A stretch of DNA of 32,000 nt from Nitrosomonas europaea (GTDB lineage Bacteria > Pseudomonadota > Gammaproteobacteria > Burkholderiales > Nitrosomonadaceae). The position numbers and the translations under genes were made by a program. This document shows positions 9,897 to 28,821 of this stretch, piece after piece (the stretch's first letter is position 1; every line of letters begins with the position of its first letter). The notes beneath the pieces were generated by a model. It was not told where the DNA came from and did not search any database. It saw only the letters and a list, made by a program, of their open reading frames with translations. Where the stretch lies: the NCBI RefSeq assembly GCF_900167395.1, contig NZ_FUWK01000017.1, positions 15,411 through 47,410 of the forward strand. Direction: 5' to 3'.

Positions 9897-10241
9897 TTAC
9901 CGGGCGGTGAACAGGGCTTGATCCCGGAAATAGATGTCATATTTTCCCGCTTGACCGGGATGGAACGCAACTCTACTATACCGGGGTTGAAATATGTCAA
10001 AACTTGGCCGTGGTGGGGAGTAGTTCTCCTTCCATTTCGGGCCACCGATGATATGGGGATGGGAACGAGTTGCAAAGGCAATGTATGATGCGTATGTCAT
10101 CGCTCTGTAACAGACGATCTTCTGCCTGCATGTCAACAAACCTGCCGAACTGGCCATATCCCCGGTTTCCAGATCATATTCCTTTTGCTCATCTGCACTC
10201 TTCCCGGGAGCTTTCCGGAAAAATCTAAATTCAAGGATCAC
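9897..10241 (-). CDS. Hypothetical protein (unsupported ORF between dapF and the pseudopilin cluster)
   Basis: 114-codon ORF with a GTG start. No recognisable motif, signal peptide or clear RBS. It occupies most of the 397-nt divergent intergenic region. Confidence 0.2.
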   Translation of the reverse strand: MILEFRFFRKAPGKSADEQKEYDLETGDMASSAGLLTCRQKIVCYRAMTYASYIAFATRSHPHIIGGPKWKENYSPPRPSFDIFQPRYSRVAFHPGQAGKYDIYFRDQALFTAR

Positions 10242-10247
10242 CTAAAT

Positions 10248-10685
10248 ATGAAGTATGCGTCAAACATCCGGCCGTGTATGGTTTATGAACGCGGGTTCAC
10301 TTTGCTCGAATTGCTGGTCGTCATGGTCATCATCGGTTTGCTGGCGGCTTATGTCGGGCCCAAGTATTTTTCACAAGTGGGTAAATCCGAAGTCAAAATG
10401 GCGCAGGCTCAGATAGATTCCCTGGAAAAAGCACTGCATCAGTACCGGTTGGATGTTGGAACTTATCCCACGACCGAGCAGGGGCTGAATGCATTGCTCA
10501 CCGCCCCTGCCAATGAGCCGAGATGGCAGGGACCTTATTTGAGCAAGCGTCTGCCGGCCGATCCGTGGGGCAGGCCCTATCAATACAAATATCCGGGTGC
10601 GCAGAACGATTTCGATTTGTTCTCATTCGGCAAGGATGGCCAGCCCGGAGGGAGTGGTGAGGATGCGGATATCACCAACTGGTAA
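10248..10685 (+). CDS. gspG: GspG-family major pseudopilin
   Basis: Prepilin motif ERG|FTLLELLVVMVIIGLLAA with Glu at +5. C-terminal GspG signature DPWGRPYQYKYPG...FDLFSFGKDGQPGGSGEDADITNW. AAGGA upstream of ATG 10248. Internal ATG 10278 would give a typical 6-aa leader (MVYERG). Confidence 0.9.
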   Translation: MKYASNIRPCMVYERGFTLLELLVVMVIIGLLAAYVGPKYFSQVGKSEVKMAQAQIDSLEKALHQYRLDVGTYPTTEQGLNALLTAPANEPRWQGPYLSKRLPADPWGRPYQYKYPGAQNDFDLFSFGKDGQPGGSGEDADITNW

Positions 10686-10703
10686 CCGTATTCGATACCG
10701 CTG

Positions 10704-11888
10704 ATGCGTTACACGGTAAGAGCCTTGCTGGCCGGAAAAGGCGCTGTGCTGCTCGAACTCGATGCGGCCAGTGAAGCCGAGGTACGCAACCGGATCAGTG
10801 CTCAAGGGGGGGTGATCCTGAGTATACGGCGGAATTTTTCCGGTTTTCTGCCCAGATCGGGTTCCCGTTTTCCGCTGTCTGATTTTTCCCAGGAACTGCT
10901 TGCCTTGCTGACAGCCGGCTTGAGTCTGGTAGAGGGTATCGAAACACTGGTCGAGAAGGAAGAGGACAGTGTGACACGCGAGTTACTCCAGCAGATACTG
11001 GCGCGCTTGCGTGAAGGAGTAACGTTTTCGCGTGCGCTGGAATTCTATCCGCAGGTATTTCCGTCACTGTATGTCGCTACCATTCGTGCCAGCGAACAGA
11101 CGGGGGATCTGGGCGAAGCACTATCACGTTATCTCGTCTATCAGTCGCAAATGGATCTGGTGCGCAAAAAGCTGGTGGGGGCATCCATCTATCCGGTTCT
11201 GCTGCTGGTGCTGGGAGGCTTGGTAGCCATCTTCCTGCTGGTGTTCGTCGTTCCTAAATTCAGCGCCATTTATGAAGATATGGGTACGGATCTGCCCTGG
11301 ATGTCCATGCTGCTGATCGAGTGGGGGCATCTGGTGCAGAAGAATGGCTGGATGCTGGCAGGAATGGCAGCGCTCTTTCTGACAGCAGCGTTTTATACCT
11401 TTTCCCGGCCGCAGATCCGGGCTCATCTGTTGCGCGCGGTATGGCGCATTCCAACAATCGGCGAGAGGATGCGGGTCTATCAGCTTGCCCGTTTCTACAA
11501 AACGCTGGGGATGCTGCTGCGCGGCGGGATTCCCGTGACCCAGGCGCTGGAAATGGTCAGCGACCTGTTGCAGCCGCACTTTCGTCCACGGGTGAAAACA
11601 GCTGCTGCACTCATCCGTGAAGGCAAGGCTATTTCCAGTGCAATGCAGAGCGCAGAGCTGACCACTGCAGTGGGAAGCCGTATGCTGCGTGTGGGGGAGC
11701 GCACCGGGATGATGGGTGACATGATGGAACGCATCGGTAATTTTCACGATGAGGAAATCGGACGCTGGGTCGAATGGATGACCAAGCTGATCGAGCCATT
11801 GTTGATGGCAGTGATCGGAACCGTCATCGGCGGCATCATCATTCTCATGTACCTGCCGATTTTCGAACTGGCGGGGAGTATCAACTGA
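10704..11888 (+). CDS. gspF: Type IV filament inner-membrane platform protein (GspF/PilC family)
   Basis: 394 aa with the duplicated GspF-type domain organisation and three hydrophobic segments. Stop overlaps the ATPase start (TGATG). Confidence 0.9.
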   Translation: MRYTVRALLAGKGAVLLELDAASEAEVRNRISAQGGVILSIRRNFSGFLPRSGSRFPLSDFSQELLALLTAGLSLVEGIETLVEKEEDSVTRELLQQILARLREGVTFSRALEFYPQVFPSLYVATIRASEQTGDLGEALSRYLVYQSQMDLVRKKLVGASIYPVLLLVLGGLVAIFLLVFVVPKFSAIYEDMGTDLPWMSMLLIEWGHLVQKNGWMLAGMAALFLTAAFYTFSRPQIRAHLLRAVWRIPTIGERMRVYQLARFYKTLGMLLRGGIPVTQALEMVSDLLQPHFRPRVKTAAALIREGKAISSAMQSAELTTAVGSRMLRVGERTGMMGDMMERIGNFHDEEIGRWVEWMTKLIEPLLMAVIGTVIGGIIILMYLPIFELAGSIN

Positions 11889-13579
11889 TGCAGACCAACG
11901 TCGCCCTGCCGGATAAACCGGCGATCGATCCGGTTATGCTCAGCCAGGCGCGTGAACAGGCCATCGCTCGCAGCACCTCACTGATCAGAGTACTGGAAGA
12001 AACTTATCAGGGCACGCCAGATGAACTGGTGACTGTACTGGGAGAAGTGCTGCGCATGCCGGTACTGACCATGAATGATCTGTATGCATTGCATCCGGCT
12101 TTTGACAGACTGCCTTTTGCACTGGCTGCCAAACGTGAATGCATGTTGCTGCAGAAACAGGATCAATCGTATCTGCTGGCGGTGAGTGATCCTTTCCGGA
12201 CGGGCCTGCGCGACTGGGTGGAGGAATATGTACCGGTGGATGCATTGTGGCATCTGGTGCATCCGGCAGATCTGGCGGCCTTTTTCGTGCAGCAGGAACA
12301 GACCATGCGTGCGATGGACAATGTGCTGTCTTCTGTTCAGGAAAATCTGATCCAGAGTGGTATCGAGGAGTTATCACTCAAAACGATTCACGAAGGGACC
12401 AGTCAGGTGGTGCGTCTGGTTCATTCGACCCTGTACGATGCGCATAAATCGCAGGCAAGCGACATTCATCTGGAGACCACGCCGGGCGCATTGTCCATCA
12501 AATACCGGATCGACGGTGTGCTGACCAGTATAGGCACCATGCAGGAGGCGAATCTGGCCGAGCAGGTGATTTCCCGGATCAAGGTCATGTCGGATCTGGA
12601 TATTGCCGAGCGCCGCATTCCGCAGGATGGCCGTTTCAAGGTTTCCATCCAGGGGCGGGAAATCGATTTCCGCGTATCGGTCATGCCGAGCATTTTTGGG
12701 GAAGATGCCGTGTTGCGGATCCTGGATCGTCAGGCGCTGACCGATCATGTCGAAGGATTGACACTGAACCAATTGGGATTCAACGCAACTTCCATTGCCA
12801 GCGTACGCCGGCTCAGCGCGGAGCCGTATGGCATGCTGCTGGTGACCGGGCCGACCGGCAGCGGCAAGACGACTTCGCTGTATGCCGCCATTTCGGAAGT
12901 CAATCACGGCCATGACAAAATCATTACGATCGAGGATCCAATCGAATATCAGTTGCCTGGTGTATTGCAGATACCGGTCAACGAGAAAAAGGGGCTGACT
13001 TTCGCCCGCGGATTGCGTTCGATTCTGCGGCACGATCCTGACAAAATCATGGTGGGTGAAATTCGCGATGCCGAAACGGCACAGATTGCAATTCAGGCTG
13101 CACTCACGGGGCATCTGGTCTTTACCACGGTTCATGCCAACAACGTGTTTGACGTGATTGGCCGGTTTGCACACATGGGTGTTGACCCTTACAGTTTTGT
13201 TTCGGCACTGAATGGCATCGTGGCGCAGCGGCTGGTGCGCCTGCTGTGCCCGAATTGCATGGTTGCAGAACAGCCGGATCAGCAGATGATCGCAGATTCG
13301 GGGATTACCCCGGAACAGGCAGAGCAGTTCGATTTTCGCTCTGCCAAAGGGTGCGGCCATTGCCGGGGTAGCGGTTATCGCGGGCGCAGCGCAATTGCTG
13401 AGATTTTGCTGCTGAATGATGAAATCCGTGAGCTGATCATTGCGCAGGCACCAATTCGTCGCATCAAGGAGGCAGCCCGGCTCAACGGCACCCGTTTCTT
13501 GCGTGAAGCGGCGCTGGATATGGTTAAAACCGGACAGACCAGCTTACAGGAGGCCAATCGTGTCACTGTCGTGGCGTAA
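11888..13579 (+). CDS. gspE: Assembly ATPase (GspE/PilB family)
   Basis: Walker A GPTGSGKTT, Asp box ITIEDPIEY, Walker B DPDKIMVGEIRD, His box TGHLVFTTVHAN. Tetracysteine zinc motif CPNC...CGHC, typical of extension ATPases rather than PilT. T2SSE_N-like N-terminus. ATG 11888 chosen over ORF start 11774, which overlaps gspF. Confidence 0.92.
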   Translation: MQTNVALPDKPAIDPVMLSQAREQAIARSTSLIRVLEETYQGTPDELVTVLGEVLRMPVLTMNDLYALHPAFDRLPFALAAKRECMLLQKQDQSYLLAVSDPFRTGLRDWVEEYVPVDALWHLVHPADLAAFFVQQEQTMRAMDNVLSSVQENLIQSGIEELSLKTIHEGTSQVVRLVHSTLYDAHKSQASDIHLETTPGALSIKYRIDGVLTSIGTMQEANLAEQVISRIKVMSDLDIAERRIPQDGRFKVSIQGREIDFRVSVMPSIFGEDAVLRILDRQALTDHVEGLTLNQLGFNATSIASVRRLSAEPYGMLLVTGPTGSGKTTSLYAAISEVNHGHDKIITIEDPIEYQLPGVLQIPVNEKKGLTFARGLRSILRHDPDKIMVGEIRDAETAQIAIQAALTGHLVFTTVHANNVFDVIGRFAHMGVDPYSFVSALNGIVAQRLVRLLCPNCMVAEQPDQQMIADSGITPEQAEQFDFRSAKGCGHCRGSGYRGRSAIAEILLLNDEIRELIIAQAPIRRIKEAARLNGTRFLREAALDMVKTGQTSLQEANRVTVVA

Positions 13580-14405
13580 TCGGATTCAGATTTTTCTGGC
13601 TCCGGATCGGGTCGATCTGACGGGGATTGCACGCGGTATCAGGCCTGTGCAGCAGTTCAGGCAATCAGGCGTGTGTGTTCAGGAAAATGATTCAAGACAG
13701 CAGTGGAAAGCGCCTCTGCGATTGCTGGAACAGATGATCGGACAGATGGATGATCGTTTCAGGCGGGGTAGCGAGTTGCATATCACGCTATCCAATCACT
13801 TCGTTCGCTATGGTGTCATCGCACCGCAGCCTTCCCTGGCGAATCCGGATGAATTGATGGCTTATGCCGGTTTCCAGATGCGCGAAATTTACGGTGAACG
13901 TATCGATGACTGGGAACTCAGCCTGAGTACCTGGGACCCTTATGGCGGCGCATTGTGTGCGGCCATCGCACGCGATTTGCAGTCAGAGCTGATAATGTTC
14001 GCCCGGCAATACGATACCCGGTTTGCGTGCATAGAACCTTATCTTGCTGCGGCGCTGGATCACTGGTCGAAGCGGCTGGTTGAAAAGCAGGTGTGGTTTG
14101 TTCTGGTGGAAACAGGGCGGTTCTGCCTGGTTGTGCTGTCCGAGGGCGCCTGGCGTTGTGCACGCAACCAGAGAGTCGTGGAGAATCTGCAGGAAGAACT
14201 GTTGGCAGCACTGGAACAGGAATCGATCATTCTCAGCCCGGATCGGTCGGTAGAGCGGGTGTATGTGTTCGCTCCCGAATTGACCGGACAGTTACCGGTG
14301 CATGATCTCCGCTGGCAGTTCGTACGCCTGCCAGATGAAAAACATCCCGCACCTTCGTATTTTCCCGGGGTAACAGGAATGGATGACAGCCAGAATCATG
14401 CGTAG
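13560..14405 (+). CDS. PilM/GspL-like cytoplasmic assembly protein (tentative)
   Basis: About 281 aa from GTG 13560, a 20-nt overlap with the ATPase gene. No TM segment. Assignment rests on position directly before PilN/O-like genes and on size; no nucleotide-binding motif recognised. Confidence 0.5.
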   Translation: MSLSWRNRIQIFLAPDRVDLTGIARGIRPVQQFRQSGVCVQENDSRQQWKAPLRLLEQMIGQMDDRFRRGSELHITLSNHFVRYGVIAPQPSLANPDELMAYAGFQMREIYGERIDDWELSLSTWDPYGGALCAAIARDLQSELIMFARQYDTRFACIEPYLAAALDHWSKRLVEKQVWFVLVETGRFCLVVLSEGAWRCARNQRVVENLQEELLAALEQESIILSPDRSVERVYVFAPELTGQLPVHDLRWQFVRLPDEKHPAPSYFPGVTGMDDSQNHA

Positions 14406-14934
14406 TCTGAAACTGAATTTCCCCTACCGCAGGCAGCAGATTCCACTGGTGGATTATCTGCTGCTGTTTCTGGGAATGGTGCTGCTGCTTGCAGTGATGT
14501 ATACGCTCAAGCAGACCATGTCGAAAATCACGTACTGGGAAGCACGCGAGGCGCGCATCGTTCAGCAGCAGAAACACACCAGGCAGCCCCGAACGCCGAT
14601 GGCGCGCATCAATAAAGCCACACAGCAGGAGCTTAAACAGGCGGATGATATTCTGCGCCAGCTCAATCTACCCTGGGAAGCGTTGTTCGATGCGCTGGAA
14701 CTGGCTGCCAGCGAGCAGATTGCACTGCTGTCGCTGCAGCCCAGTGTTACCGGTCAGACCATCCGTATTACGGGTGAAGCGCGAGATCTTGCCGCTCTGG
14801 TGGAGTATGTCCAGGCACTCGAACTGGAGCCGGTACTGAAAAATGCGCATTTGGCCAGCTATAAAGCCCGGCAGGATCATCTACGCCGTCCCATTGTTTT
14901 TTCAATCATTGCAACGTGGCACGAATCGCTTTAG
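14398..14934 (+). CDS. PilN-like bitopic inner-membrane assembly protein
   Basis: N-terminal KLNFPYRRQQ resembles the PilN NLLPxR motif. It is followed by one TM helix (LVDYLLLFLGMVLLLAVMY) and a periplasmic coiled-coil plus alpha/beta region. ATG overlaps the upstream stop. Confidence 0.55.
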   Translation: MRSLKLNFPYRRQQIPLVDYLLLFLGMVLLLAVMYTLKQTMSKITYWEAREARIVQQQKHTRQPRTPMARINKATQQELKQADDILRQLNLPWEALFDALELAASEQIALLSLQPSVTGQTIRITGEARDLAALVEYVQALELEPVLKNAHLASYKARQDHLRRPIVFSIIATWHESL

Positions 14935-15470
14935 AAAACTGGCTGGTCAGGGCACGTTGGCAGGTTACCCGTCTGGGGACCGTCGGCCGGGCAGGGGCGG
15001 GATTGCTCGTGTTGACGCTGGTATTTTTTATAGCGGCAGTCATGCCCCAGAAGGAGCGCCTGAAAGAGCTGAAAAGCAAAGTACAGGTAATGCAGCAGGC
15101 ACAGCCTGATTCTGCCGGGCAGACAAAGCTGAACAATAATCAGGCATTGCAGGTTTTTTATGATTTCCTTCCGCGCAGTGATTCTTCCCCTTACTGGATC
15201 AGTGAACTCGACAGGATCGCCAAAGACAGTGGTGTGGAGCTGAATAGCAGTGATTGCCGGCTGAAGGTGGAAAAAGAATCGAAACTGGTACGTTATGAGA
15301 TTCAATTGCCGTTGCGCGGGACCTATCCCCAGATTCGCGCATTCATTGCAAGCGCATTGCAGGCCGTGCCGGCACTCGCGCTGGCTGATATCATCATCAG
15401 GCGCGAAACCATACAGGCTGGCAGAGTGGATGCGCGCCTGAACATGCACCTTTATCTGAATGACTACTAA
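14916..15470 (+). CDS. PilO/GspM-like bitopic inner-membrane assembly protein
   Basis: 184 aa with a GTG start overlapping the upstream gene by 19 nt. One TM helix (GAGLLVLTLVFFIAAV), a coiled-coil (KERLKELKSKVQVMQQ) and a C-terminal ferredoxin-like-sized domain. Confidence 0.5.
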   Translation: MARIALENWLVRARWQVTRLGTVGRAGAGLLVLTLVFFIAAVMPQKERLKELKSKVQVMQQAQPDSAGQTKLNNNQALQVFYDFLPRSDSSPYWISELDRIAKDSGVELNSSDCRLKVEKESKLVRYEIQLPLRGTYPQIRAFIASALQAVPALALADIIIRRETIQAGRVDARLNMHLYLNDY

Positions 15471-16226: not shown

Positions 16227-18524
16227 GTGGGGATGAATACAACAAAAAGAATCTTGATATTGCTGCTGCTCGCATTGATCACCGGTTGTGCGATGCATAC
16301 GACGCGAAATCCATCTTTTCTGGAAGGAAAACGGTTGATTGCAGAAGGGCGGCTGGAAGAGGGTCTGGGCAAGCTGGAACAGGCCGCTCGTGAGGAACCG
16401 GATGATAGAGAAGTCGGTGCGACGCTGGCCAGGGAACGTGACACCATCATCGGCCAGATTCTGTTCGAGGCGGATAACGCCCGGCTGGCTGGCAATCTGG
16501 ATCAGGCCGAGCAGAATTATCAGCGTGTACTGAATATCAGGGCCAGTAGTGAACGTGCCCGGGAAGGATTGGATGCGGTTGATCTGGAGCGCCGCCATAT
16601 CGTTCTGGTCAATCAGGCAAAAGAGGCACTTGCGCATGGTGATGTGGACGGAGCGGAAAAAATCGTAAGGGGGGTACTGGCCGATAATCCGATGCAATCT
16701 GAAGCGAGACAACTGATCAAGGCGCTCAGTGAACAGATTGCACGAGCCGAGATGTCTGAATTGTCTCTGATAACCGAATTCAGCAAGCCCATTACCATGG
16801 AGTTCCGCGATACATCGCTGAAAACCATGTTTGAGTTGATCTCGCGCACGGCCGGCATCAATTTCGTATTCGATCGTAATGTTCAGCAGGAAGCAACGGC
16901 TTCAATCTTCGTCCGTGACAATTCGATTGAAGATGTGCTGAAACTGATGCTCCTGACCAATCAGCTCGCGTACAAGGTACTCAACAGCAACACGCTGCTG
17001 ATCTATCCGGATACACCCGCCAAGCAGAAGGATTATCAGGAGCTGGTCGTGCGCAGCTTTCACGTTGCCAATACGGATGTCAAACAGATGGTGGCCATGA
17101 TTCGTGGACTGGTCAAGGCACGTGACATTTACGTCAATGAGAAACTCAACCTGTTCGTGATACGGGATACGCTGGAGATGATCCGATTGGTGGAACGTCT
17201 GGTTGCCATCAACGATTTTCCCGATCCGGAAGTGATGCTGGATGTGGTAGTACTGGAAGTGAAACGTGACAGCACGCTCGATCTGGGGCCAAATATGCCT
17301 ACTTCGGTGACATTCAGTGCCGTTCCCGGTATAGGTACACCCGCTCAGGCAGCAGCGGATTCCGTGGTTAAAATGAGCATGATCAAGAATACCGGCTTCG
17401 AAGGGTTGCGGAGTTTCACTATCAGCAATCAGGCCAGAATCGATTTCGGCAGGACCCTGACCAACGCGGATGTGCTGGCCAACCCCCGCATTCGTGTCAA
17501 AAGCCGGGAGAAGGCAAAAATCCATATCGGTAACAAGGAGCCGGTGTTCACGGTCACGAATACAGCCAATGTCGGATCGGCTGCTTCAGCAACTTATATC
17601 GATGTCGGGCTGAAATTCGAAGTCGAACCGGTGGTCAGAACCAATAATGAGGTCACCTTGAAAGCGCTGCTGGAAGTCAGCAGTAATCTCGGTGAAAAAA
17701 GATCCGGGAGCGGAGAAAATGCAGCCACGGCCATCGTCATCGGCACACGTACGGCGGAAACGGTTCTGGAGCTGCGGGACGGAGAGACACAGGTGCTGGC
17801 CGGACTGATTCAGGATGATCTGAGCAGAGTAAGATCGGGTATCGCCGGGTTGACCGATATACCGGTACTGGGTGATATTTTCTCCAAGCAGGTCAGAAAA
17901 CATAACAAAACCGAAATAATTCTGCTGATCACACCGCATATCGTCCGCAATGTCATTCAGCCCAACCACTTTGAAAGCGAGTTTTATTCCGGTACGGCCA
18001 GCGCCGCCGGGAAACTGCCTGTAACCATACGGAAAACGGCACCGCGTTCACTGGCGATGGAATCCTCGAACAGTGCGTCAGATGGAGGATATATGTCATT
18101 AGGACGGGCACGATCTGCCGGGTTATTCGGAGCGGCACCCGATCTGTTTGAGGAAGCGGTTACGCAGGCAAGAGAGGCTTCTCCCTCATTGACGTTGCGT
18201 GTGCCGGAAAGTGTGGCGGGAGGCCGGGAATTTACCGCTACTGTCAGGCTGGTGACCCAGGATCCCATGCTATCCGGCGAATTGAACCTGACCTATGACC
18301 CGGATACTTTGGAACTGGTGGATGGCGGGGAAAAATCCGGAATGCGCAGCCTGAAGCTCGGCCGGGATCAATCCACCGGAATGACAGCGGTGCTGCGTTT
18401 CAAGGTGATCAGCACAAATGCAACTTCAACTGAAATTGCTTTACAGAATTTACAGGTGCGGGATGAGACAGGGCAGCCGGTTGAAGTGAATCTGCCACCG
18501 GCAGCGAGTATCAGGATTCAGTGA
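16227..18524 (+). CDS. Secretin-family outer-membrane channel with N-terminal lipoprotein signal + TPR region and C-terminal cohesin-like domain
   Basis: Lipobox LLALITGC. TPR-like helical repeats over roughly aa 30-170. Secretin_N-like repeats. Canonical secretin core (ANPRIRVKSREKAKIHIG, YIDVGLKFEVEPVV, RDGETQVLAGLIQDD, GIAGLTDIPVLGDIFS, EIILLITPHIV). A low-complexity linker precedes a 114-aa tail with the cohesin-like pattern GGREFTATVRL...LNLTYDPDTLELV. Confidence 0.9.
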   Translation: MGMNTTKRILILLLLALITGCAMHTTRNPSFLEGKRLIAEGRLEEGLGKLEQAAREEPDDREVGATLARERDTIIGQILFEADNARLAGNLDQAEQNYQRVLNIRASSERAREGLDAVDLERRHIVLVNQAKEALAHGDVDGAEKIVRGVLADNPMQSEARQLIKALSEQIARAEMSELSLITEFSKPITMEFRDTSLKTMFELISRTAGINFVFDRNVQQEATASIFVRDNSIEDVLKLMLLTNQLAYKVLNSNTLLIYPDTPAKQKDYQELVVRSFHVANTDVKQMVAMIRGLVKARDIYVNEKLNLFVIRDTLEMIRLVERLVAINDFPDPEVMLDVVVLEVKRDSTLDLGPNMPTSVTFSAVPGIGTPAQAAADSVVKMSMIKNTGFEGLRSFTISNQARIDFGRTLTNADVLANPRIRVKSREKAKIHIGNKEPVFTVTNTANVGSAASATYIDVGLKFEVEPVVRTNNEVTLKALLEVSSNLGEKRSGSGENAATAIVIGTRTAETVLELRDGETQVLAGLIQDDLSRVRSGIAGLTDIPVLGDIFSKQVRKHNKTEIILLITPHIVRNVIQPNHFESEFYSGTASAAGKLPVTIRKTAPRSLAMESSNSASDGGYMSLGRARSAGLFGAAPDLFEEAVTQAREASPSLTLRVPESVAGGREFTATVRLVTQDPMLSGELNLTYDPDTLELVDGGEKSGMRSLKLGRDQSTGMTAVLRFKVISTNATSTEIALQNLQVRDETGQPVEVNLPPAASIRIQ

Positions 18525-18553: not shown

Positions 18554-19036
18554 ATGTTGCAGACAGCATCTTGCCGCGGATTTACCCTGATCGAGCTGAT
18601 GATCGTAGTGGCAGTCATGGGAATCCTGGCTTCCGCGGCGATGCCATTAGGTGAAATGGTCGTCAAACGTGAAAAGGAGCGAGAGTTGCGTATAGCACTG
18701 CGCCAGATCCGCACGGCGATCGATGCCTATAAGCAGGCGGCGGATGAGGGATTGGTCGAAAAAAAGGCTGATGAAACCGGCTATCCTCATCGGCTGGAAG
18801 ATCTGGATACGGGCATGGACGACGTAAAAGACCCTGACAGCAAGAAAATCTTTTTCATGCGCCGTTTGCCGCGCGATCCAATGTTTCCGGATACTGAGGT
18901 ACCTGCTGCCGAAACCTGGGGAAAACGCAGTTATGCCAGCCCGCCCGACAGTCCGGAGGAGGGAGATGACATTTACGATGTTTATTCCCTTTCCGAAAAA
19001 GCGGGGTTGAACGGGATTCCCTACAATCAATGGTAA
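18554..19036 (+). CDS. Prepilin-type (GspG-like) pseudopilin 2
   Basis: MLQTASCRG|FTLIELMIVVAVMGILA class III signal with Glu+5. N-terminal helix followed by VKREKERELRIALRQIRTAIDAYK, as in GspG-type pseudopilins. Confidence 0.8.
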   Translation: MLQTASCRGFTLIELMIVVAVMGILASAAMPLGEMVVKREKERELRIALRQIRTAIDAYKQAADEGLVEKKADETGYPHRLEDLDTGMDDVKDPDSKKIFFMRRLPRDPMFPDTEVPAAETWGKRSYASPPDSPEEGDDIYDVYSLSEKAGLNGIPYNQW

Positions 19037-19467
19037 AGCTCGCTGATCAGACTGTGATCCAATCGGTATCAAACCGATTGAAGCGGCCCGGTGGCCATTG
19101 GCGTGAACGGGGGTTCACGCTGATCGAATTACTGGTGGTGATGGTCGTTATTGCTATCCTCCTCACGATTGTGACGCCGCGTTACTTCAATTCTGTCGAC
19201 CGGGCGAAGGAAACGGTACTCAAGCAGAATCTCAGTATTCTGCGCGACGCGATCGACAAATATTTTGCCGATACCGGCAAATATCCGACCGATCTGCATC
19301 AACTGGTCGAGGATCGTTATATTCGCGCGATACCTGTCGATCCGATTACCGAGGAAAACGTCTGGGTGGAAATTCCGCCGCCCGATCCTGAAATGGAAGG
19401 CGTGTTCGATGTGCATACGACTTCCGACCGGCAGGCGCTGGACGGGACATTTTATGAGAAATGGTGA
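19030..19467 (+). CDS. Prepilin-type (GspG-like) pseudopilin 3 with an unusually long leader
   Basis: RERG|FTLIELLVVMVVIAILL, then RAKETVLKQNLSILRDAIDKYFADTGKYPTDL (GspG-like). ATG 19030 overlaps the upstream stop (ATGGTAA) and gives a 28-aa leader. TTG 19078 would give 12 aa. Confidence 0.8.
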   Translation: MVKLADQTVIQSVSNRLKRPGGHWRERGFTLIELLVVMVVIAILLTIVTPRYFNSVDRAKETVLKQNLSILRDAIDKYFADTGKYPTDLHQLVEDRYIRAIPVDPITEENVWVEIPPPDPEMEGVFDVHTTSDRQALDGTFYEKW

Positions 19468-19469
19468 CA

Positions 19470-20105
19470 ATGTCATGCCGGCAAGAACGGGGATATATTT
19501 ATATCTGGATGCTGTTTGCTGTTATGCTTGCGGGCGTGATGCTGGCTGCTGCCGGGTTGATCTGGCAGACAGAAGTCAAACGGGAAAAGGAGCTGGAACT
19601 GCTGTTCGCCGGTGACCAGTTCCGGCGGGCGATCGAGTCCTACTATAACGATTCTCAAGTGTCGGGGAGAGCGGGGGAGGCGGGTGCCAGCCGCTACCCG
19701 GCATCTCTTGAACAGTTGCTCAAGGATGAGCGTTCTCTGGTAGTGAAACGGCATCTCAGAAGAGTTTACCCCGATCCGATGACGAACAGCTACAACTGGG
19801 GGCTGGTCAGGCAGCAGGACGGCGGGATTACCGGTGTCTACAGTCTTTCGACTGGCGTGCCGATCAAGCGTGCCAATTTTCCGGCAGATTACATTGCTTT
19901 TGAAAAGGCCGGGAATTATCAGGGTTGGAAATTTGTCCATGCTGCCAGTACTGCAGGAGGGCAGGAAAAACAGCAGGCGGAAGGTCGGGGAAACATACAG
20001 GGCGATACGTCGATGCCGGGATTGCCGGGTACTGGATTTAATCCGCTTCCACAAAACCAGCCTGCTCCGAATCTATCTCCGCCAACCGGCAATGATGCGT
20101 TTTAA
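19470..20105 (+). CDS. Atypical pseudopilin-like protein (degenerate class III signal, Pro/Gln-rich tail)
   Basis: MSCRQERG|YIYIWMLFAVMLAGVMLAAAG is hydrophobic like a pilin helix but has Tyr at +1 and no Glu at +5. It shares VKREKELELLF...FRRAIESYY with pseudopilin 2. C-terminus MPGLPGTGFNPLPQNQPAPNLSPPTG. Alternative ATG at 19461. Confidence 0.55.
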   Translation: MSCRQERGYIYIWMLFAVMLAGVMLAAAGLIWQTEVKREKELELLFAGDQFRRAIESYYNDSQVSGRAGEAGASRYPASLEQLLKDERSLVVKRHLRRVYPDPMTNSYNWGLVRQQDGGITGVYSLSTGVPIKRANFPADYIAFEKAGNYQGWKFVHAASTAGGQEKQQAEGRGNIQGDTSMPGLPGTGFNPLPQNQPAPNLSPPTGNDAF

Positions 20106-20278: not shown

Positions 20279-21988
20279 ATGAAAGTTATTTTGACGATAC
20301 AGTTAGCATTATTGCTGAGCATGGCGGGATGTACCCAACTCCCCAGAACGGGGGATGCCATTGCTCATGGTTCCGCAGCTTCCGCCGGTGCAGCACCCGC
20401 CACGGAACTGACTGCTGATTCCCTCTTTGATTTTCTGATGGGAGAAACGGCCCTGCAGCGAAATATGCCAGACGTTGCAGTGGAAAGTTTCATCCGGCTG
20501 GCAAGAGAAACACGCAACCCGAGGATCGCAGAACATGCGACTGATATCGCACTGCGGACGCGTCATTTCGGGGAGGCAAAAGAGGCCATCGATTTATGGG
20601 TAGCACTGGAACCTGATTCCATGCATGCGCGCCAGGCGGCAGTAGCGCTGTTCGTTGCGAACGGTCAGCTCGATAATGTCCGTCCCCACGTTGAACAGTT
20701 GTTGAAGCTGGAGCCGGAAACCGTCGATAAAGCGTTCATGCAGATCAACAAACTCCTGTCTCATCATTCAGACAGAGAAGCCGTGCTGAAACTGGTGCAG
20801 CAGCTTGCAGCATCCTACCCTGATTTGCCGGAAGCCCATTTTGCTGTATCCCAGGCTGCATGGTCTGCCAATGAATTCAAACTCGCGGCAAAAGCCATGA
20901 ATCAAGCGCTCGAATTACGGCCGGAATGGGAAATGGCCGCCGTGCATCAGGGGCAGATTCTGCAGAAAATTGATAAAGACAAGGCATTGTCTTTTTACGA
21001 TCAGTATCTCGACCGATTTCCCAGAGCCAATGATATACGGATTGCCTATATCCGCATGCTCATGGAGGAGAGAGAATTTGACCGGGGGCGTGAGCAGTTC
21101 CAGAAACTGGAGCAGGTAAACCCCTCCAACCCTGATATTGCGCTGGCGATCGGCCTTTTATCTGCCGAGCTGGATGACCTGGGGAGTGCAGAAAAGTATT
21201 TCAAACGTGCACTGCAACTCGGGTTTGAGGACACCAACACAATTCATTTCAATCTGGGGCGTATCCATGAAATTGCACAGCACAATGCTGAAGCAATGGA
21301 TGCCTACCTCAGGGTGACGGGTGGGGAACGTTATATTGCTGCCCGGGTGCGCTATGCTTTCTTGCTGGCAAAGCGGGATGGAATAGCCGCTGCCAGAAGA
21401 TATCTGAAAACCGTTCAGGTTGAAAATGAACAGCAGCGTACACAGTTGCTGATTTCTGAAGCACAGCTGCTGCGGGATAGTGGCGAGTTTCGTGGCGCGT
21501 ATGATCTGCTGGATGCTTATCTCAGAAAGTATCCGGATCAGGTCGAACTGCTGTACGACCGGGCACTGATGGCTGACAAGATCGGCAAGCTGGATGTACT
21601 GGAACAGGATTTGCGCAAACTGATTGAGTTGAGACCGGATAACGCCCATGCCTATAATGCGTTGGGCTACAGCCTGGCTGAGCGTGGTCTGCAACTGCCG
21701 GAAGCATTGGCACTGATCCAGAAAGCCATCGAACTTTCTCCCGATGATCCCTACATCATGGACAGCCTTGGTTGGGTTTATTACCGTATGGGTGATCTGA
21801 AAAAAGGGGTCAATTACCTGAAGCTTGCCTTCGACACTCGCTCCGATCCTGAAATTGCAGCACACTACGGCGAATTGCTCTGGATGAACGGTGCAAAGGA
21901 AGATGCCGAAAAAATCTGGCAGTCGGCGCTGGAAGAACATCCTGAAAATGAACTGCTGCTGGATACCGTCAAGCGGTTCATGAAATAG
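20279..21988 (+). CDS. TPR-repeat lipoprotein
   Basis: MKVILTIQLALLLSMAGC lipobox, followed by about 550 aa of recognisable TPR units (e.g. AHAYNALGYSLAERGLQLPEALALIQKAIELSPDDPYIMDSLGWVYYRMGDLKKGVNYLKLAF). Last gene on the cluster strand. Confidence 0.8.
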   Translation: MKVILTIQLALLLSMAGCTQLPRTGDAIAHGSAASAGAAPATELTADSLFDFLMGETALQRNMPDVAVESFIRLARETRNPRIAEHATDIALRTRHFGEAKEAIDLWVALEPDSMHARQAAVALFVANGQLDNVRPHVEQLLKLEPETVDKAFMQINKLLSHHSDREAVLKLVQQLAASYPDLPEAHFAVSQAAWSANEFKLAAKAMNQALELRPEWEMAAVHQGQILQKIDKDKALSFYDQYLDRFPRANDIRIAYIRMLMEEREFDRGREQFQKLEQVNPSNPDIALAIGLLSAELDDLGSAEKYFKRALQLGFEDTNTIHFNLGRIHEIAQHNAEAMDAYLRVTGGERYIAARVRYAFLLAKRDGIAAARRYLKTVQVENEQQRTQLLISEAQLLRDSGEFRGAYDLLDAYLRKYPDQVELLYDRALMADKIGKLDVLEQDLRKLIELRPDNAHAYNALGYSLAERGLQLPEALALIQKAIELSPDDPYIMDSLGWVYYRMGDLKKGVNYLKLAFDTRSDPEIAAHYGELLWMNGAKEDAEKIWQSALEEHPENELLLDTVKRFMK

Positions 21989-22306: not shown

Positions 22307-22582
22307 TTAATAAACAACATCGTGGCTTCCAATATTGATCGGGATAATTTGCTTATCCTCGATCAGGAATTCCAGCGTAATCCGATAAGAAAGATTAATT
22401 GAAATTGCATATATCCCCTGAAGTTTGCCGCTTAATACATGTAATCGCAGGGAAGGATGATAGGGATTAGTTTGGAGAATTTGCAGCGTTCTCAGATATT
22501 GTGTACGCAAATCAGGGTGACGCCTCAACCAGCGTGCCGCCCGCTGGTTATAAGCATCCGTAAAGATCAGCGAATAGCCCAT
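22307..22582 (-). CDS. RelE/ParE-superfamily toxin
   Basis: 91 aa; NPYHPSLRLHVLSGKLQGIYAISINLSYRITLEF...INIGSHDVVY matches the RelE/StbE-type pattern (HxLxGxLxG...S..YRI...GSHDxVY). Begins 3 nt after the antitoxin gene. Confidence 0.8.
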   Translation of the reverse strand: MGYSLIFTDAYNQRAARWLRRHPDLRTQYLRTLQILQTNPYHPSLRLHVLSGKLQGIYAISINLSYRITLEFLIEDKQIIPINIGSHDVVY

Positions 22583-22585
22583 TTT

Positions 22586-22843
22586 TTACTTCAGCGTATC
22601 CAGCCGTGCAAGATGCGCTTCCGGCGATTCCTGCTCACAACGTCCGGCAGCAAGATCTGCCCGTGTTTCTGCCAGTGCGGCAGTCAGTTCACACTCTCGT
22701 AAATAATAGTAATGTTCCAGCTGCATGACGACATAGCGATCCTTGCCTCGCACAGCAATAATCGCTTCCGGTTGTTCCTCCAGTTGCGCTTCAATCGCCG
22801 CAATTCCTCTGGTCTTGAGGTCGTTTGCATTAATAGTATTCAT
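22586..22843 (-). CDS. Phd/YefM-family antitoxin
   Basis: 85 aa; N-terminal INANDLKTRGIAAIEAQLEEQPEAIIAVRGKDRYVVMQLEHY is typical of Phd/YefM. Lies upstream of the toxin. Confidence 0.8.
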   Translation of the reverse strand: MNTINANDLKTRGIAAIEAQLEEQPEAIIAVRGKDRYVVMQLEHYYYLRECELTAALAETRADLAAGRCEQESPEAHLARLDTLK

Positions 22844-23387: not shown

Positions 23388-23759
23388 TTACGAATCAGTT
23401 TGATAAGTCTGTCCCAGTTTTCGTTTGTGGCCGTAGCTGGTCAGTTTGTTTTGCAGTTGTGCCATCCAGGGTTCGGTAATGGCACGGATTTCGGCATCAC
23501 GTTCCAGTATGCCGTGGATGAGGCTGATCTTTTTTTTCTTCTGTTCTTCGCTCAACTGCTCGTAAGTGTGCTGTTCCATCAGCCAGGTGGTCAGGCGTTT
23601 ACAATCCTGTTCCAATGCTACCAGCTTGTCCCAGTCGCTGTTTTTTGCCGCTTGCAGCATCTGGTCAGTGATTGCCAGTATGGCTTCATATGTGGTGATG
23701 ATCTGCATACCGTTTTTATTGTCTTCGGGTGAATATCCGGATGAGGTGTCGGGCTTCAT
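23388..23759 (-). CDS. fliT: Flagellar export chaperone FliT-like
   Basis: Small, helical and acidic (ILAITDQMLQAAKNSDWDKLVALEQDCKRL...), directly after fliS. ATG 23759 overlaps the fliS stop (ATGA). Alternative ATG 23708 gives 106 aa. Assigned mainly by position and character. Confidence 0.55.
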   Translation of the reverse strand: MKPDTSSGYSPEDNKNGMQIITTYEAILAITDQMLQAAKNSDWDKLVALEQDCKRLTTWLMEQHTYEQLSEEQKKKKISLIHGILERDAEIRAITEPWMAQLQNKLTSYGHKRKLGQTYQTDS

Positions 23760-24226
23760 GCCATTGCACCTGTACCGGCCGTGTCCTCGATCGTATTTCT
23801 GGTTGCTGTCTGTACATCTGTTTTTCCGGCAGGCTGATTTCCAATCGATGCCCACGCTTCATGCAGCTCGCCCAGCAGGCAGCTGATTTCCTCGATGATC
23901 ACGGCATCGTTCTGCAGATTGGCCGTAAGCAGCCGGGCGGTCATGTAGTCATACAGCTGCTCCAGCCGGTTGGCCAGTTCTCCGCCGGCTGTTTTGTCGA
24001 GACTGGCTTTGAGGCCATGGTCGATGATCATGATCGCTTTGGAAATCATTTCCCCTTTGGCGGCAATCCTGTTCTGCTGTATATACAGCAGGCTGCAGTC
24101 CAATGCCTGGCGCGCGCCTTCGAACAGCATCAGGATCAGCTTGTGCGGATCGGCGGATACCACGCCGGATTCGACGCCCACTCGCTGATAACTGCTGATC
24201 GCGCGGCTGGGGGATTCAGTAAACAT
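23756..24226 (-). CDS. fliS: Flagellar export chaperone FliS
   Basis: 156 aa; YQRVGVESGVVSADPHKLILMLFEGA...KGEMISKAIMIIDHGLKASLD...LANRLEQLYDYM is the typical FliS four-helix pattern. Confidence 0.92.
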   Translation of the reverse strand: MFTESPSRAISSYQRVGVESGVVSADPHKLILMLFEGARQALDCSLLYIQQNRIAAKGEMISKAIMIIDHGLKASLDKTAGGELANRLEQLYDYMTARLLTANLQNDAVIIEEISCLLGELHEAWASIGNQPAGKTDVQTATRNTIEDTAGTGAMA

Positions 24227-24272
24227 GAGTTCTCCTTTTCAGAAATGAGTGTGCAGTTACGCTATCGGCTAT

Positions 24273-25718
24273 TTATTCACCGATCTTTGGCAGATTCGCC
24301 AGTTGTTGCTGCAAATAGTTACTGGTCTGGTTCATGCTGGCAATCATCGTATCCAGCGCGGTGAACTGCGCGCGCAGGCGTTTTTCCACACTTTCCAGCC
24401 GGAATTCCAACGCTTCACGCTGTTTGCCGATTCCTTTGATCGTACTGTTGATGCCATCCATGCGGCTGCTGATCAAGCCATCGCTGCGAGTCATGCCATC
24501 GATCAGCTCACTCAATCGGGAAGCGAAACCTTCGACAGAGGTTGTGTCATCTCCTCCCTGGGTAGTGAAAAACGCCGCAATATTCTTGTCCGGATTATTC
24601 AGCACGGCGCTCAGTTTGTTGTTATCCAGCGCCAGTGTGCCATCCTTCTGAAAGCTGATACCCAGCTCGGACAGCGAGTTGATTCCGCCGGCAGCGGATT
24701 GATTGCCGCCCAGCATGGCGCGCATCCGGTTTTGTATCATGCGCATGGTGGAATCCCCGGTCAGCACCGATGCCTGCTTGTTGGCCGCATCGTAACGGGA
24801 AAGATTGCCGATCGTTTTTTCCAGATCGTTATACGCTTTTACAAACGCATTGACTGCTGCCTCAACGTTGCTTTTGTCCTTCTCCACTGTCAGCGTGGTC
24901 GTTGTGCCAGGGTTGGCCTTGAGCAGGTTGAACGTCACCCCTTCCAGCGCATCGTTGATGGTATTGGATGACTTCGTCACTGGAATGCCGTCGATCACCA
25001 TGACTGCATTTCTGGCTGCTACGGTTTCGGTCATGTTGCTGACGCCGCCAGTCGAAGCATCAAATGCCAGCTTCGATAACCCGGCGTTATCCGTGTGGTT
25101 GCCATCGGTATCGTTCACGCTGATCTTCAGCGCATTGGCCAGCCCGCTATCTTTGGAAGAAATCACCAGCCGGTTGCCGCTGCCATCGTTGACGATACTG
25201 GCTGTCACCCCCGCATTCGCTTCGTTGATGGCACTGCGAATATCTGCCAGGGTCGATTTGGCCGGGTCGATCGTGATGGTTTTGGCTGTTTTCTCTGCAT
25301 TGGCGGTAAACGTGCCATCTTCGTTATATGTGCCGAATTCGATTGTCAGTGTGCCGCTGCCGATCACGGTATCGGTGGTAGCAAATGCTTCTGACTTGAT
25401 TTTCTGCGCTTGCGCCAGTGATTGCACTTCGATGTCATGCGTGCCGGCCGAAGCACTGGATGAAGTGCTTACCGTGGCTGCAGTCGTATCTGCCAGTGTG
25501 GCTTTGTAGCCATTGAACAGCGCAGGTTTGGCCAGCGCCTTCACACTGTCCTGAAACGTTGAGAGCACGCTTTTCAGGCTGCCAAAGGCAGAGAGCTGCG
25601 CCTGCTGTTTTGCTTCCTTGGTGTTGAGCTGCGTCAGTGGCTGCTGCTCGATCTCCATCAGTTTACTGATGATTCCGCTGACATCCAGTCCTGAGCCGAT
25701 TCCCGGTGCTGAAATCAT
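24273..25718 (-). CDS. fliD: Flagellar filament capping protein FliD (HAP2)
   Basis: 481 aa; N-terminal SAPGIGSGLDVSGIISKLMEIEQQPL and C-terminal coiled-coil RLRAQFTALDTMIASMNQTSNYLQQQL. Confidence 0.92.
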   Translation of the reverse strand: MISAPGIGSGLDVSGIISKLMEIEQQPLTQLNTKEAKQQAQLSAFGSLKSVLSTFQDSVKALAKPALFNGYKATLADTTAATVSTSSSASAGTHDIEVQSLAQAQKIKSEAFATTDTVIGSGTLTIEFGTYNEDGTFTANAEKTAKTITIDPAKSTLADIRSAINEANAGVTASIVNDGSGNRLVISSKDSGLANALKISVNDTDGNHTDNAGLSKLAFDASTGGVSNMTETVAARNAVMVIDGIPVTKSSNTINDALEGVTFNLLKANPGTTTTLTVEKDKSNVEAAVNAFVKAYNDLEKTIGNLSRYDAANKQASVLTGDSTMRMIQNRMRAMLGGNQSAAGGINSLSELGISFQKDGTLALDNNKLSAVLNNPDKNIAAFFTTQGGDDTTSVEGFASRLSELIDGMTRSDGLISSRMDGINSTIKGIGKQREALEFRLESVEKRLRAQFTALDTMIASMNQTSNYLQQQLANLPKIGE

Positions 25719-25774
25719 GATGTGTTTCCTCTTCCCTGTCTGTGGGTGAAATTATTTATTACCTGTTGTTTCTG

Positions 25775-25801
25775 TTTACGGCTGGACAGCGGTGAACTTT
25801 G
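25775..25801 (-). promoter_or_regulatory. Candidate sigma-28 (FliA) promoter for fliD
   Basis: Minus strand reads CAAA-N15-GCCGTAAA, versus consensus TAAA-N15-GCCGATAA, about 55 nt upstream of the fliD ATG. Confidence 0.4.
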
Positions 25802-25880
25802 AGAAATAGTGTGAAAATAATCAAATAACCGGAAAGGCTCTGGAGAGCGGCGTGAGTTGCAACAATTTTGCAGCATTTTC

Positions 25881-26237
25881 TCAGGCCTGGCCGTTGAACA
25901 GCAATCCCTGTATCTTTCCCAGCGCGCTGGCAATCTTGATTGCTTCTTCCGAAGGCATCTGCCGAATGACTTCCTGTGTTTGCGCATCAACAATCTTGAC
26001 CACGGTTTTGCCGGTATCTTCGTCGATCGAAAATTTCAGGTTCTGCGTTAATGCTTGTGTGAACTGCTGAATCTGATTTACCGCCTCTTTCACCTGTTCC
26101 GGTTTGATGTCGCTGGTTTCAGCCGGAGGCTGGGCAGCAGGCGCCATCTCGCGCTCTCCTGTCCGGGCGGCAGGCATTGCCGGCTGAACGGGTGCTGTAG
26201 CCTGAAATAGTTCAGCAGTTACTGCGTTGATATTCAT
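25881..26237 (-). CDS. flaG: Flagellar protein FlaG
   Basis: 118 aa; C-terminal LKFSIDEDTGKTVVKIVDAQTQEVIRQMPSEEAI is the FlaG signature. Lies between fliC and fliD. Confidence 0.85.
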   Translation of the reverse strand: MNINAVTAELFQATAPVQPAMPAARTGEREMAPAAQPPAETSDIKPEQVKEAVNQIQQFTQALTQNLKFSIDEDTGKTVVKIVDAQTQEVIRQMPSEEAIKIASALGKIQGLLFNGQA

Positions 26238-26285
26238 GTCAATCTCCTTTTAATCTACCTGATCAGTTTTTGCCTGGCTGACTTA

Positions 26286-26400
26286 TCATCGCGATGACGA
26301 GGGGTACTGTCTTGCGAGGCGGTTGTAAACCGCCGTGGCAATCCAGTCAGTTACCAGAGTGCTGGATTGCCACGTCATGTTGTTCCTCGCGATGACGAAC
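26286..26400. repeat. Compound palindromic (REP-like) element in the fliC-flaG spacer
   Basis: 12-bp palindrome TCATCGCGATGA (26286-26297). 7-bp stem GGCGGTT/AACCGCC (26318-26334). Perfect 12-bp stem GTGGCAATCCAG/CTGGATTGCCAC (26335-26373, 15-nt loop). Flanking direct repeat TCGCGATGACGA (26289-26300 and 26387-26398). Confidence 0.55.
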
Positions 26401-26407
26401 GCAGTGC

Positions 26408-27235
26408 TTATCTCAACAGCGACAACACATTGTTCGGCAATGCATTGGCTTGTGACAGCATGGCCACCCCGGCTTGCTGCAGGATCTGCGCACGAGTCAG
26501 TGCAGCGGTTTCAGCAGCGAAGTCTGCGTCCTGAATCCGGCTGCGGGAAGCAGACAGATTTTCAGCTGAAGTTTGCAGATTGGCTATTGCAGAACTAAAA
26601 CGATTCTGGATAGCACCCAAATCTGCACGAGTGCTATTGACGATTTTGAGGGCGTCATCTATGGTTGTAATTACACTCGCAGCAGCAGTACCATCAGTAC
26701 CAGTAATATCAACGCTATCGACACTTAATCCGCTCGCTGTAACATCAGCTATATCGGTAAAATCGATAGTTTCACCTTCATTGGCTCCCACTTGGAATAT
26801 CTGACTTGCGAAGGAGCCATCCAGCAGCTTGGTACCGTTAAAACTGGTCTGCTCACCCACGCGTTGAATTTCATCAATCAACTGGGTGACTTCTTTTTGT
26901 AGCGCTTCACGATCATCTTCTGAATTGGTGGCATTAGCCGATTGCACTGCCAGCTCGCGAATACGCTGTAAGTTATTGCCAATTTCGACCAGTGCGCCTT
27001 CAGCCGTTTGTGCTAGTGAAATACCATCATTGGCATTACGCGCAGCCTGGTTCATACCCCGGATTTGTGAGGTCATGCGCTCGGAAATCGCGAGCCCGGC
27101 AGCATCATCCTTGGCGCTGTTGATGCGCAAGCCGCTGGATAAACGCTGCAAGGCGGTGCTCAATGAGTTCTGGGATACATTCAGGTTACGTTGTGCATTG
27201 AGTGACGCAATGTTGGTATTGATAACTTGTGGCAT
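26408..27235 (-). CDS. fliC: Flagellin (short form, 275 aa)
   Basis: [19 protein letters not shown]...[24 protein letters not shown]-terminus and ...[36 protein letters not shown]-terminus. Central region is only about 60-70 aa. Confidence 0.95.
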
Positions 27236-27780: not shown

Positions 27781-27993
27781 ATGATGAATAGAAAGCTCAC
27801 CGAATTGCCAATTGACGAGCGCATACAGCTTGTTGAGGATTTATGGGATAGCATCGCGTCTGATCAAAAGATGCTGCGACTTACCACTGAACAAAAGGCT
27901 GAACTCGATAGACGTCTAAACGCCTATGAAGTCGATAAAAACCCAGGCCGATCAGCGTTGGAGGCTATCGCAGAAATTCGGCGTAATTTGTGA
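27781..27993 (+). CDS. Antitoxin, 'putative addiction module component' type, partner of ParE
   Basis: LTELPIDERIQLVEDLWDSIASD...LTTEQKAELDRRLNAYEVDKNPGRS is the characteristic pattern of this antitoxin family. Stop overlaps the toxin GTG (GTGA). ORF could also start at 27751. Confidence 0.8.
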   Translation: MMNRKLTELPIDERIQLVEDLWDSIASDQKMLRLTTEQKAELDRRLNAYEVDKNPGRSALEAIAEIRRNL

Positions 27994-28286
27994 CCTGTGA
28001 AGTTCGACTCCGGCCGGAAGCAGAGCAGGATCTGGCAGATGCGGCGGCTTGGTATGAAGAGCAGCGGCAAGGACTGGGTCACAAATTTCTCGATGAAGTG
28101 ACGACAACGTTATCGAATATTGCAGAAACCCCGCTGGCATACCCGAATGTTCATCGCGGTACAAGACGCGCAGTTATCAGACGGTTTCCTTTTGGTATCT
28201 ATTTTCAAGTAAAGAAAGCAACAATCATCGTGGTTGCGGTAATGCATGGCAGCCGAAATCCGCATCAGTGGAAAAGTCGAACATAA
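27990..28286 (+). CDS. parE: ParE/RelE-family toxin
   Basis: 98 aa; RLRPEAEQDLADAAAWYEEQRQGLGHKFLDEV...RRFPFGIYFQVKKATIIVVAVMHGSRNP is the typical ParE plasmid-stabilisation toxin layout. Confidence 0.85.
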   Translation: MTCEVRLRPEAEQDLADAAAWYEEQRQGLGHKFLDEVTTTLSNIAETPLAYPNVHRGTRRAVIRRFPFGIYFQVKKATIIVVAVMHGSRNPHQWKSRT

Positions 28287-28354
28287 CGTTAAGGCTATGT
28301 CGTGACTGCAAAGCAAACCACGCTATGAGCCGGTTGTTGAATGCACATAGTTGG

Positions 28355-28772: not shown

Positions 28773-28821
28773 TTTCATCGGTTTAGCCTATAACTTGCCC
28801 GGCCAGGAGGTTGACTATACA

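Follow-up and report, generated by a model that had tools for sequence, protein, structure and literature searches.

Secretins normally depend on separate pilotins and, in type II secretion systems (T2SS), on the S-domain. The closest described systems include the HxcQ liposecretin of the Pseudomonas aeruginosa Hxc T2SS, which is self-piloted (Viarre et al. 2009, as cited in PMC12475490), and the tetratricopeptide repeat (TPR) lipoprotein pilotin TadD, which binds the C-terminal residues of the RcpA secretin (PMC10499894). Here we describe a secretin encoded by the open reading frame (ORF) at 16227–18524 (+) in a 32,000-nucleotide stretch of the Nitrosomonas europaea genome (RefSeq assembly GCF_900167395.1, contig NZ_FUWK01000017.1, positions 15,411–47,410; this whole stretch is referred to as the window and coordinates are given in its own numbering). 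The protein combines a PilQ-like short core (N0–N1–secretin) with a lipobox, a TPR-like arm, a linker and a shortened cohesin domain at the C-terminus. An initial annotation, made from the sequence alone, had drawn attention to this layout as exceptional and had suggested that the tail tethers a partner. These domain assignments are much firmer than the function we propose for them, which is tentatively that of a self-piloting liposecretin with a periplasmic docking site.

Domain architecture of the Nitrosomonas secretin

The ORF translates to 765 aa from a GTG start. Public proteins of the Nitrosomonas europaea/eutropha group (e.g. P0003) start from the ATG at 16233, giving 763 aa that are 100% identical to the window secretin, and have been named 'FecR domain-containing protein', 'GspD' or 'secretin and TonB N-terminal domain-containing protein'. 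The secretin β-barrel was matched by Pfam at aa 412–574 (17460–17948; Secretin PF00263, 117 bits against a cut-off of 27.5, E 8.4e-34), with the start of the barrel domain placed near aa 343 by eye. It is preceded by an N0 (STN / FecR_C-like) domain at aa 191–261 (16797–17009), which passes Pfam STN with 28.9 bits against a cut-off of 28.4 and matches FecR_C with 29.4 bits, and by an N1 (Secretin_N) domain at aa 275–332 (17049–17222), which is borderline in the window protein (27.9 bits against a cut-off of 28.2) and passes in homologs. No other N-domains were detected in the window secretin using Pfam, and no AMIN domain was found using Pfam and NCBIfam, the N-terminus being occupied by the lipo-TPR arm. 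The protein scored well under the NCBIfam cut-offs for GspD (equivalog TIGR02517, 128.8 bits against 351) and PilQ (TIGR02515, 122.9 bits against 284), and was also far under that for MshL. The core was about equally distant from PulD (6hcg) and Neisseria PilQ (9sh1 and 4av2), which are the closest solved cores (E ~1e-18), with the best PilQ matches spanning aa 186–575 and the PulD match aa 222–587.

The C-terminal part of the protein consists of a linker (aa 578–651 by our domain boundaries, 17958–18179) and a 114-aa module (aa 652–765, 18180–18521) which ends the protein in the typical full-length homolog (median of zero residues beyond it). Across the family the linkers are 55–92 aa long and of low complexity (51% A/P/G/S), and the initial annotation had described the one here as Ser/Ala/Gly-rich. 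A spacer rich in A/P/G/S comes after a conserved ExxFxSGTxxxxG segment, and the region is less conserved than the parts flanking it. The AlphaFold2 (AF2) model obtained from the tail alignment is all-β with eight strands and a predicted local distance difference test (pLDDT) score of 94.4, in agreement with the β-rich module first proposed and against a disordered tail. The four best PDB matches found for it by Foldseek were all type II cohesins (5k39_A, 3l8q_D, 3l8q_A and 4fl4_K; query template modelling (TM) scores of 0.71–0.76), and the next were complement MG domains and immunoglobulin V domains with TM scores of ≤0.56, mostly ~0.5. Alignment of the tail with five certified cohesin domains by hhalign gave a probability of 98.0% (E 2.3e-13 over 97 columns).

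A sequence-profile search of the tail against the PDB gave no match, and querying a word index for homologs with just the tail brought up a single fragment; the link to cohesins was made by the fold search and by hhalign. A check of the isolated tail against Pfam Cohesin (PF00963) did return a match (21.0 bits, E 4e-4) in which the YDPxxLE motif lies inside the aligned part, and in this respect upheld the resemblance, but the score remained under the cut-off of 24.1 bits. When 25 diverse homolog tails were scanned singly, 15 matched Pfam Cohesin (best E 1.7e-5). An exhaustive HMMER search with the tail profile over 1.84 billion representatives produced at least 150 matches, and amongst those listed are the Pfam-certified cohesins P0129 (Cohesin E 9.5e-38), P0130, P0144, P0171 and P0134, the last of which carries a Dockerin_1 domain, while 20 of the 74 short matches listed also hit Pfam Cohesin. 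Longer tails of ~140 aa are found on the secretins of five related operons (L133, L137, L141, L144 and L158, with the full gene order visible at L137, L158 and L133), and these long-type tails all pass the Pfam Cohesin cut-off (49.6, 42.0, 37.7, 31.5 and 26.3 bits). By profile–profile match and cohesin jelly-roll fold, the Nitrosomonas tail belongs with PF00963, as a divergent and shortened version of a true cohesin that lacks ~25 aa internally. The 'short-type' tail of Nitrosomonas and the Burkholderiales looks to have been derived from the long type by this deletion.

At the other end of the protein is a signal peptide with the lipobox LITGC and Cys21 (16227–16289 from the GTG, or from the ATG at 16233 as in the public annotations). 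The N-terminal sequence, MNTTKRILILLLLALITGC followed by Ala at position +2 of Cys21, can be read directly as a standard lipoprotein signal peptide, as had been claimed, and the cysteine immediately past the hydrophobic signal segment is kept in all aligned homologs. The secretin therefore carries the same kind of lipoprotein signal as the TPR lipoprotein pilotins PilF/PilW, Tgl and TadD, and is predicted to be lipidated. The TPR-like helical arm which follows (16290–16784) was modelled by AF2 (aa 21–186, pLDDT 91.5) as seven helices (aa 29–186), and reading these together with the sequence suggests about three repeats of 48 aa, in each of which a TPR-type hairpin leads into a long connector helix. 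Weak Pfam TPR_19, TPR_14 and TPR_2 matches are found at aa 35–161, and the top Foldseek matches of the arm are all TPR proteins (SPINDLY, designed CTPRs, P58IPK, YbgF, BamD and MamA). No NCBIfam pilotin model (PilW TIGR02521, Tgl or other) matched the secretin, and the sole NCBIfam match on the N-terminal region was to the TraC lipoprotein model, far under its cut-off. On the basis of the model, an extended, non-canonical TPR-like array would be a fair description of the arm and 'canonical TPR superhelix' an unfitting one: the TPR assignment of the initial annotation holds for the hairpins, which are confidently predicted, and less clearly for the overall geometry (TM 0.24–0.44). The arm ends a few residues ahead of N0 with almost no linker, and would therefore have to run from the lipid anchor in the outer membrane to the lowest point of the secretin's periplasmic portion.

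Distribution, gene order and PilP-like paralogs

We assessed the distribution of this layout using 120 listed Nitrosomonas-type and 120 listed Burkholderiales-type relatives. Amongst the former, BLAST matches extending from tail to end were obtained in 119/119 cases at 42–100% identity, a level of conservation too high for the tail to have been matched by chance. With the Burkholderiales-type member P0211 as query, more than 7000 proteins are matched at E ≤ 1e-20 (named members come from Ramlibacter, Aquincola and Roseateles), and 119 of its 120 listed relatives carry the tail. Independent sampling, in which operons were found through the PilP-like gene, provided 22 secretins complete at the C-terminus, and a cohesin-like domain is present in 21 of these at 180–208 residues past the end of the secretin domain. 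A tail-less ortholog was also found (L139:616–2976); this is ~591 aa long, retains the lipobox and TPR arm, and ends 52 residues past the secretin domain, with the next pseudopilin gene 11 nt on. A single cohesin-like domain is present per locus in the window and in loci L001–L079. The layout is near-universal in this family and is less exceptional than first held, because it is the norm for a large betaproteobacterial family, and the machine is found in the Nitrosomonadaceae, the Burkholderiales and metagenomic lineages.

The secretin gene lies in a cluster of 11 genes (GspG–GspF–GspE, PilM/N/O/P-like, the secretin and three minor pseudopilins) whose order is shared by 41 full-flank Nitrosomonadaceae loci and by distant loci from metagenomes. 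The upstream genes encode the GspG major pseudopilin (TIGR01710, 185 bits, over the cut-off), GspF, the GspE ATPase, a protein in the PilM position, PilN and a PilO/GspM-like protein (10185–15470, +; assigned using NCBIfam, Pfam and synteny), and are followed by ORF15551 (15551–16120, +). The profile of the ORF15551 C-terminal domain matches Neisseria PilP (2ivw, E 1.9e-4, and 4av2_M, 5e-4) and Pfam T2SSC matches 3 of 20 members of the ORF15551 family, which identifies this as the PilP / GspC homology region (HR)-type protein and the expected partner of the secretin N0 domain. Downstream of the secretin are three minor pseudopilin genes (18554–19036, 19030–19467 and 19461–20105, +), of which the first two encode N_methyl motifs and the third, without a family match, was assigned by position and conserved synteny. 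The next gene (20279–21988, +) is accessory and encodes a TPR lipoprotein with the lipobox SMAGC that is weakly PrsT/PilW-like.

We note that the gene in the PilM position (13440–14405) has no Pfam or NCBIfam match and is the least conserved member of the operon, with tblastn matches in 10 of the 41 loci; as listed, this ORF begins upstream of the GspE stop and the true start is probably at ~13560–13600. In two distant operons (L071:14116–15637 and L079:5178–8103) the third pseudopilin is followed by an unannotated protein of 224–263 aa and then by a GerE/LuxR-type regulator gene, directly in L071 and past one opposite-strand gene in L079, and neither of these two genes was observed in the window.

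The cohesin-like module of the secretin also occurs on paralogs of the PilP-like protein. Amongst the listed tail-profile matches and their cluster relatives, 31 protein entries are ORF15551 homologs with a C-terminal cohesin-like module (~20 distinct representatives at the 50%-identity level, together with near relatives of two of these; examples include P0141, P0152, P0161, P0172, P0201, P0213, P0235 and P0269). These PilP–cohesin paralogs match the model of the operon's PilP-like protein with E down to 2e-45, and in some the linker before the module is ~10 aa long. They are encoded at loci L080–L099 and L138, and in one case (L087:5238–6308) the paralog lies ~6 kb from a tail-bearing secretin operon. 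At L072–L076 and L080–L099 the contexts of the paralogs were mostly either short contigs or devoid of conserved neighbours. PilP-type proteins are periplasmic and bind the secretin N0 domain, as in the PilQ–PilP assembly 4av2, and the C-terminus and S-domain of solved secretins face the periplasm. The fusion of the module to PilP-like paralogs therefore argues that it acts in the periplasm near the N0/PilP ring.

The remainder of the window includes a flagellar filament cluster at 23388–27235 (−), with genes for flagellin (26408–27235), FlaG (25881–26237), FliD (24273–25718), FliS (23756–24226) and FliT (23388–23855). Toxin–antitoxin-type ORFs are clustered at 22307–22843 (−), with weak HigB-like and Phd-like matches, and at 27990–31588 (+), where ParE (27990–28286), a FitA-like ribbon-helix-helix protein with a PIN-domain protein (28811–29517), and HigB with a helix-turn-helix protein (30898–31588) are found, and these clusters have a lower G+C content (0.42–0.52). 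The first 2000 nucleotides of the window have a G+C content of 0.60–0.66 compared to ~0.53 elsewhere, and this end of the window includes a FecR-domain protein (659–1318, −) and long overlapping ORFs on both strands at 1323–2253.

Proposed function of the module and alternative explanations

Our overall account is of a self-piloting liposecretin in which a periplasmic cohesin serves as the docking site for a partner taken up at the entrance of the channel, which we put forward tentatively and as somewhat short of an even chance. The secretin is the outer membrane channel of a conserved T2SS-like pseudopilus machine, and the lipid anchor and TPR arm predicted from its sequence would make it self-piloting, replacing both the separate TPR-lipoprotein pilotin and the S-domain. 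As in HxcQ-type liposecretins, the secretin carries a conserved lipobox of its own and could be independent of a pilotin; in 17 of the 41 loci a gene for a separate TPR lipoprotein lies downstream. The cohesin modules, one per subunit, would hang in the periplasm on flexible tethers, with the N0/PilP ring at the channel entrance within their reach. On the model of GspC, where a PDZ domain follows the HR, the module would most likely be a protein-docking site for cargo, the pseudopilus tip or an accessory protein, and a canonical calcium-dependent dockerin is probably not involved. A more specific form of this account, which we regard as possible if rather doubtful, is that the cohesin, both as part of the secretin and on the free PilP-like paralogs, serves as a dockerin-free periplasmic receptor for cargo selection or assembly that decides what enters the channel. 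If true, this would mean that a T2SS-like machine found in nitrifiers and other Betaproteobacteria contains a docking step based on a cohesin.

Several observations weigh against this account. The gathering score of Pfam Cohesin is not reached by the tail itself (21.0 against 24.1 bits), and the ~25 residues that hhalign finds missing from mid-domain relative to the canonical cohesin may have altered the canonical dockerin-binding face. The Foldseek matches of the arm are weak (best E 1e-3, TM 0.24–0.44). The PilP–cohesin paralogs are mostly orphan genes with no T2SS neighbours, so that homology is all that links them to the secretin machine, and the tail-less L139 ortholog means that at least one lineage can do without the module.

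Three partners had been suggested in the initial annotation, a dockerin-like cargo (considered below), the TPR lipoprotein encoded downstream and a cell-surface component. The TPR lipoprotein is present in 17 of the 41 full-flank Nitrosomonadaceae loci and in none of the three distant loci that keep the tail and have downstream flank (0/3), and on this synteny we rejected it as an obligate partner of the tail. Contact with the cell surface is unlikely, because secretin C-termini face the periplasm and the module is fused to periplasmic PilP-like proteins. We also dropped a link to PEP-CTERM/exosortase sorting, which had been raised by the PrsT-like TPR protein in the window and a PEP-CTERM gene in L071, as these genes are not co-conserved and the tail-profile matches checked (see below) do not end in a PEP-CTERM motif.

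The alternative that survives best, which we nevertheless consider unlikely, is that the two added modules form a built-in pair in which the tail binds the lipo-TPR arm of its own or a neighbouring subunit, so that an outer collar staples the ring under the outer membrane and replaces the S-domain and pilotin. Almost all full-length homologs keep the two modules together, there is a precedent for TPR pilotins that bind the C-terminus of a secretin (TadD–RcpA, PMC10499894), and the arm, in running from the lipid anchor to N0 without a linker, would lie alongside the barrel and within reach of the tail. Against such a pairing, the L139 ortholog has the lipo-TPR arm without the tail, and the PilP-like proteins that bear the module have no TPR of their own.

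Glycan binding is distinctly unlikely. Here the tail would be a carbohydrate-binding module (CBM)-like β-sandwich that anchors the secretin to peptidoglycan, in place of the AMIN domains of PilQ, or that handles exopolysaccharide. Cohesins and CBMs share the jelly-roll fold in structural classification, and the PilQ-like core has no detected AMIN domain. Secretins have been implicated in slime export (PMC12475490), and there are weak contextual hints in the PrsT-like TPR protein downstream and in genes for a PEP-CTERM protein and Bac_transf near L071 and L076, respectively. However, the tail matches no CBM family, and the structures closest to it in fold are cohesins and not CBMs. The genes that provide these hints are not conserved, and of the 148 tail-profile matches checked, none has a PEP-CTERM motif at its end (0/148).

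Canonical cohesin–dockerin docking, with the tail binding a cargo or scaffold protein that bears a dockerin and whose gene lies elsewhere in the genome, seems quite improbable to us. The tail does belong to the cohesin family proper, and its profile retrieves multi-cohesin proteins, including the one with Dockerin_1 (P0134). We scanned the window and ~160 loci with flanks of up to 10 kb using a regular expression for Ca-loops, and found no dockerin-type loops in the window or loci L001–L079, and one isolated loop but no paired dockerin loops in the 4565 ORFs of L080–L159; the dockerin-like cargo first envisaged has no candidate amongst these, and the module is itself shortened by the ~25-aa deletion. 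Finally, a passive ring, in which the modules self-associate as a stabilising collar with no external partner, would fit one copy per subunit and the strong conservation of the domain but is very improbable, as the flexible 55–92-aa linker better suits a mobile capture module and the presence of this module on PilP-like paralogs as well points to a binding function that is portable.

Comparison with known secretins, pilotins and cohesins

Like HxcQ, the Nitrosomonas protein is a T2SS-type secretin that is itself a lipoprotein (here by prediction) and could be targeted to the outer membrane without a separate pilotin. HxcQ has a short linker after the lipid anchor and is not known to have a TPR-like arm or a C-terminal cohesin module, both of which are present in the Nitrosomonas secretin. 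The second comparison is with PilF/PilW of the type IVa pilus (T4aP), Tgl of Myxococcus, TadD of the Tad system and MshN, which are also outer membrane lipoproteins with TPR-type helices associated with a secretin. These are separate polypeptides in which five or six canonical TPRs form a crescent, whereas the Nitrosomonas arm has about three TPR-like hairpins with long connector helices and is fused ahead of N0.

The N0–N1–secretin core is shared with PilQ (4av2 and 9sh1) and PulD/GspD (6hcg), and the PilP-like gene immediately upstream of the secretin is a feature of T4aP operons. The protein differs from PilQ in having no detected AMIN domains and in belonging to an operon with a GspG-type major pseudopilin, and from GspD in having two N-domains instead of four and no recognisable S-domain, the position of which is taken by the linker and cohesin module. 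The PDZ domain of GspC is a periplasmic binding module beside the secretin N0 ring, and the PilP–cohesin paralogs carry their module after the HR-like domain, where GspC has a PDZ or coiled-coil domain. The folds are unrelated, and in the window the module is on the secretin and not on the PilP-like protein.

The tail shares the β-sandwich fold and detectable sequence homology with the type II cohesins of cellulosomal scaffoldins and anchoring proteins (5k39, 3l8q and 4fl4). These are ~140–170 aa long, compared with 114 aa and an internal deletion in Nitrosomonas, where the module is probably periplasmic, is fused to a secretin in a Gram-negative nitrifier, and has no dockerin partner detected nearby. 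Lipoprotein secretins such as HxcQ and TPR lipoprotein pilotins are already known, and the long-type fusions should be annotated by standard pipelines because they pass the Pfam cut-off. Our literature search found no papers describing a cohesin on a secretin or PilP-like protein, or a secretin–pilotin fusion of this layout. The short-type tail is also a lesson in annotation, as it slips under the Pfam cut-off.

Cohesins outside cellulosomes are known in general, and the family is best known from Gram-positive cellulosomes, so a periplasmic cohesin in ammonia oxidisers would, if true, widen the uses of this fold. The tail would also provide a handle for finding the cargo of a widespread and unstudied T2SS-like system in Burkholderiales and in nitrifiers, which are of environmental importance. 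Compared to secretins that depend on a separate pilotin and an S-domain, the functions of both appear to have been replaced here by fused modules.

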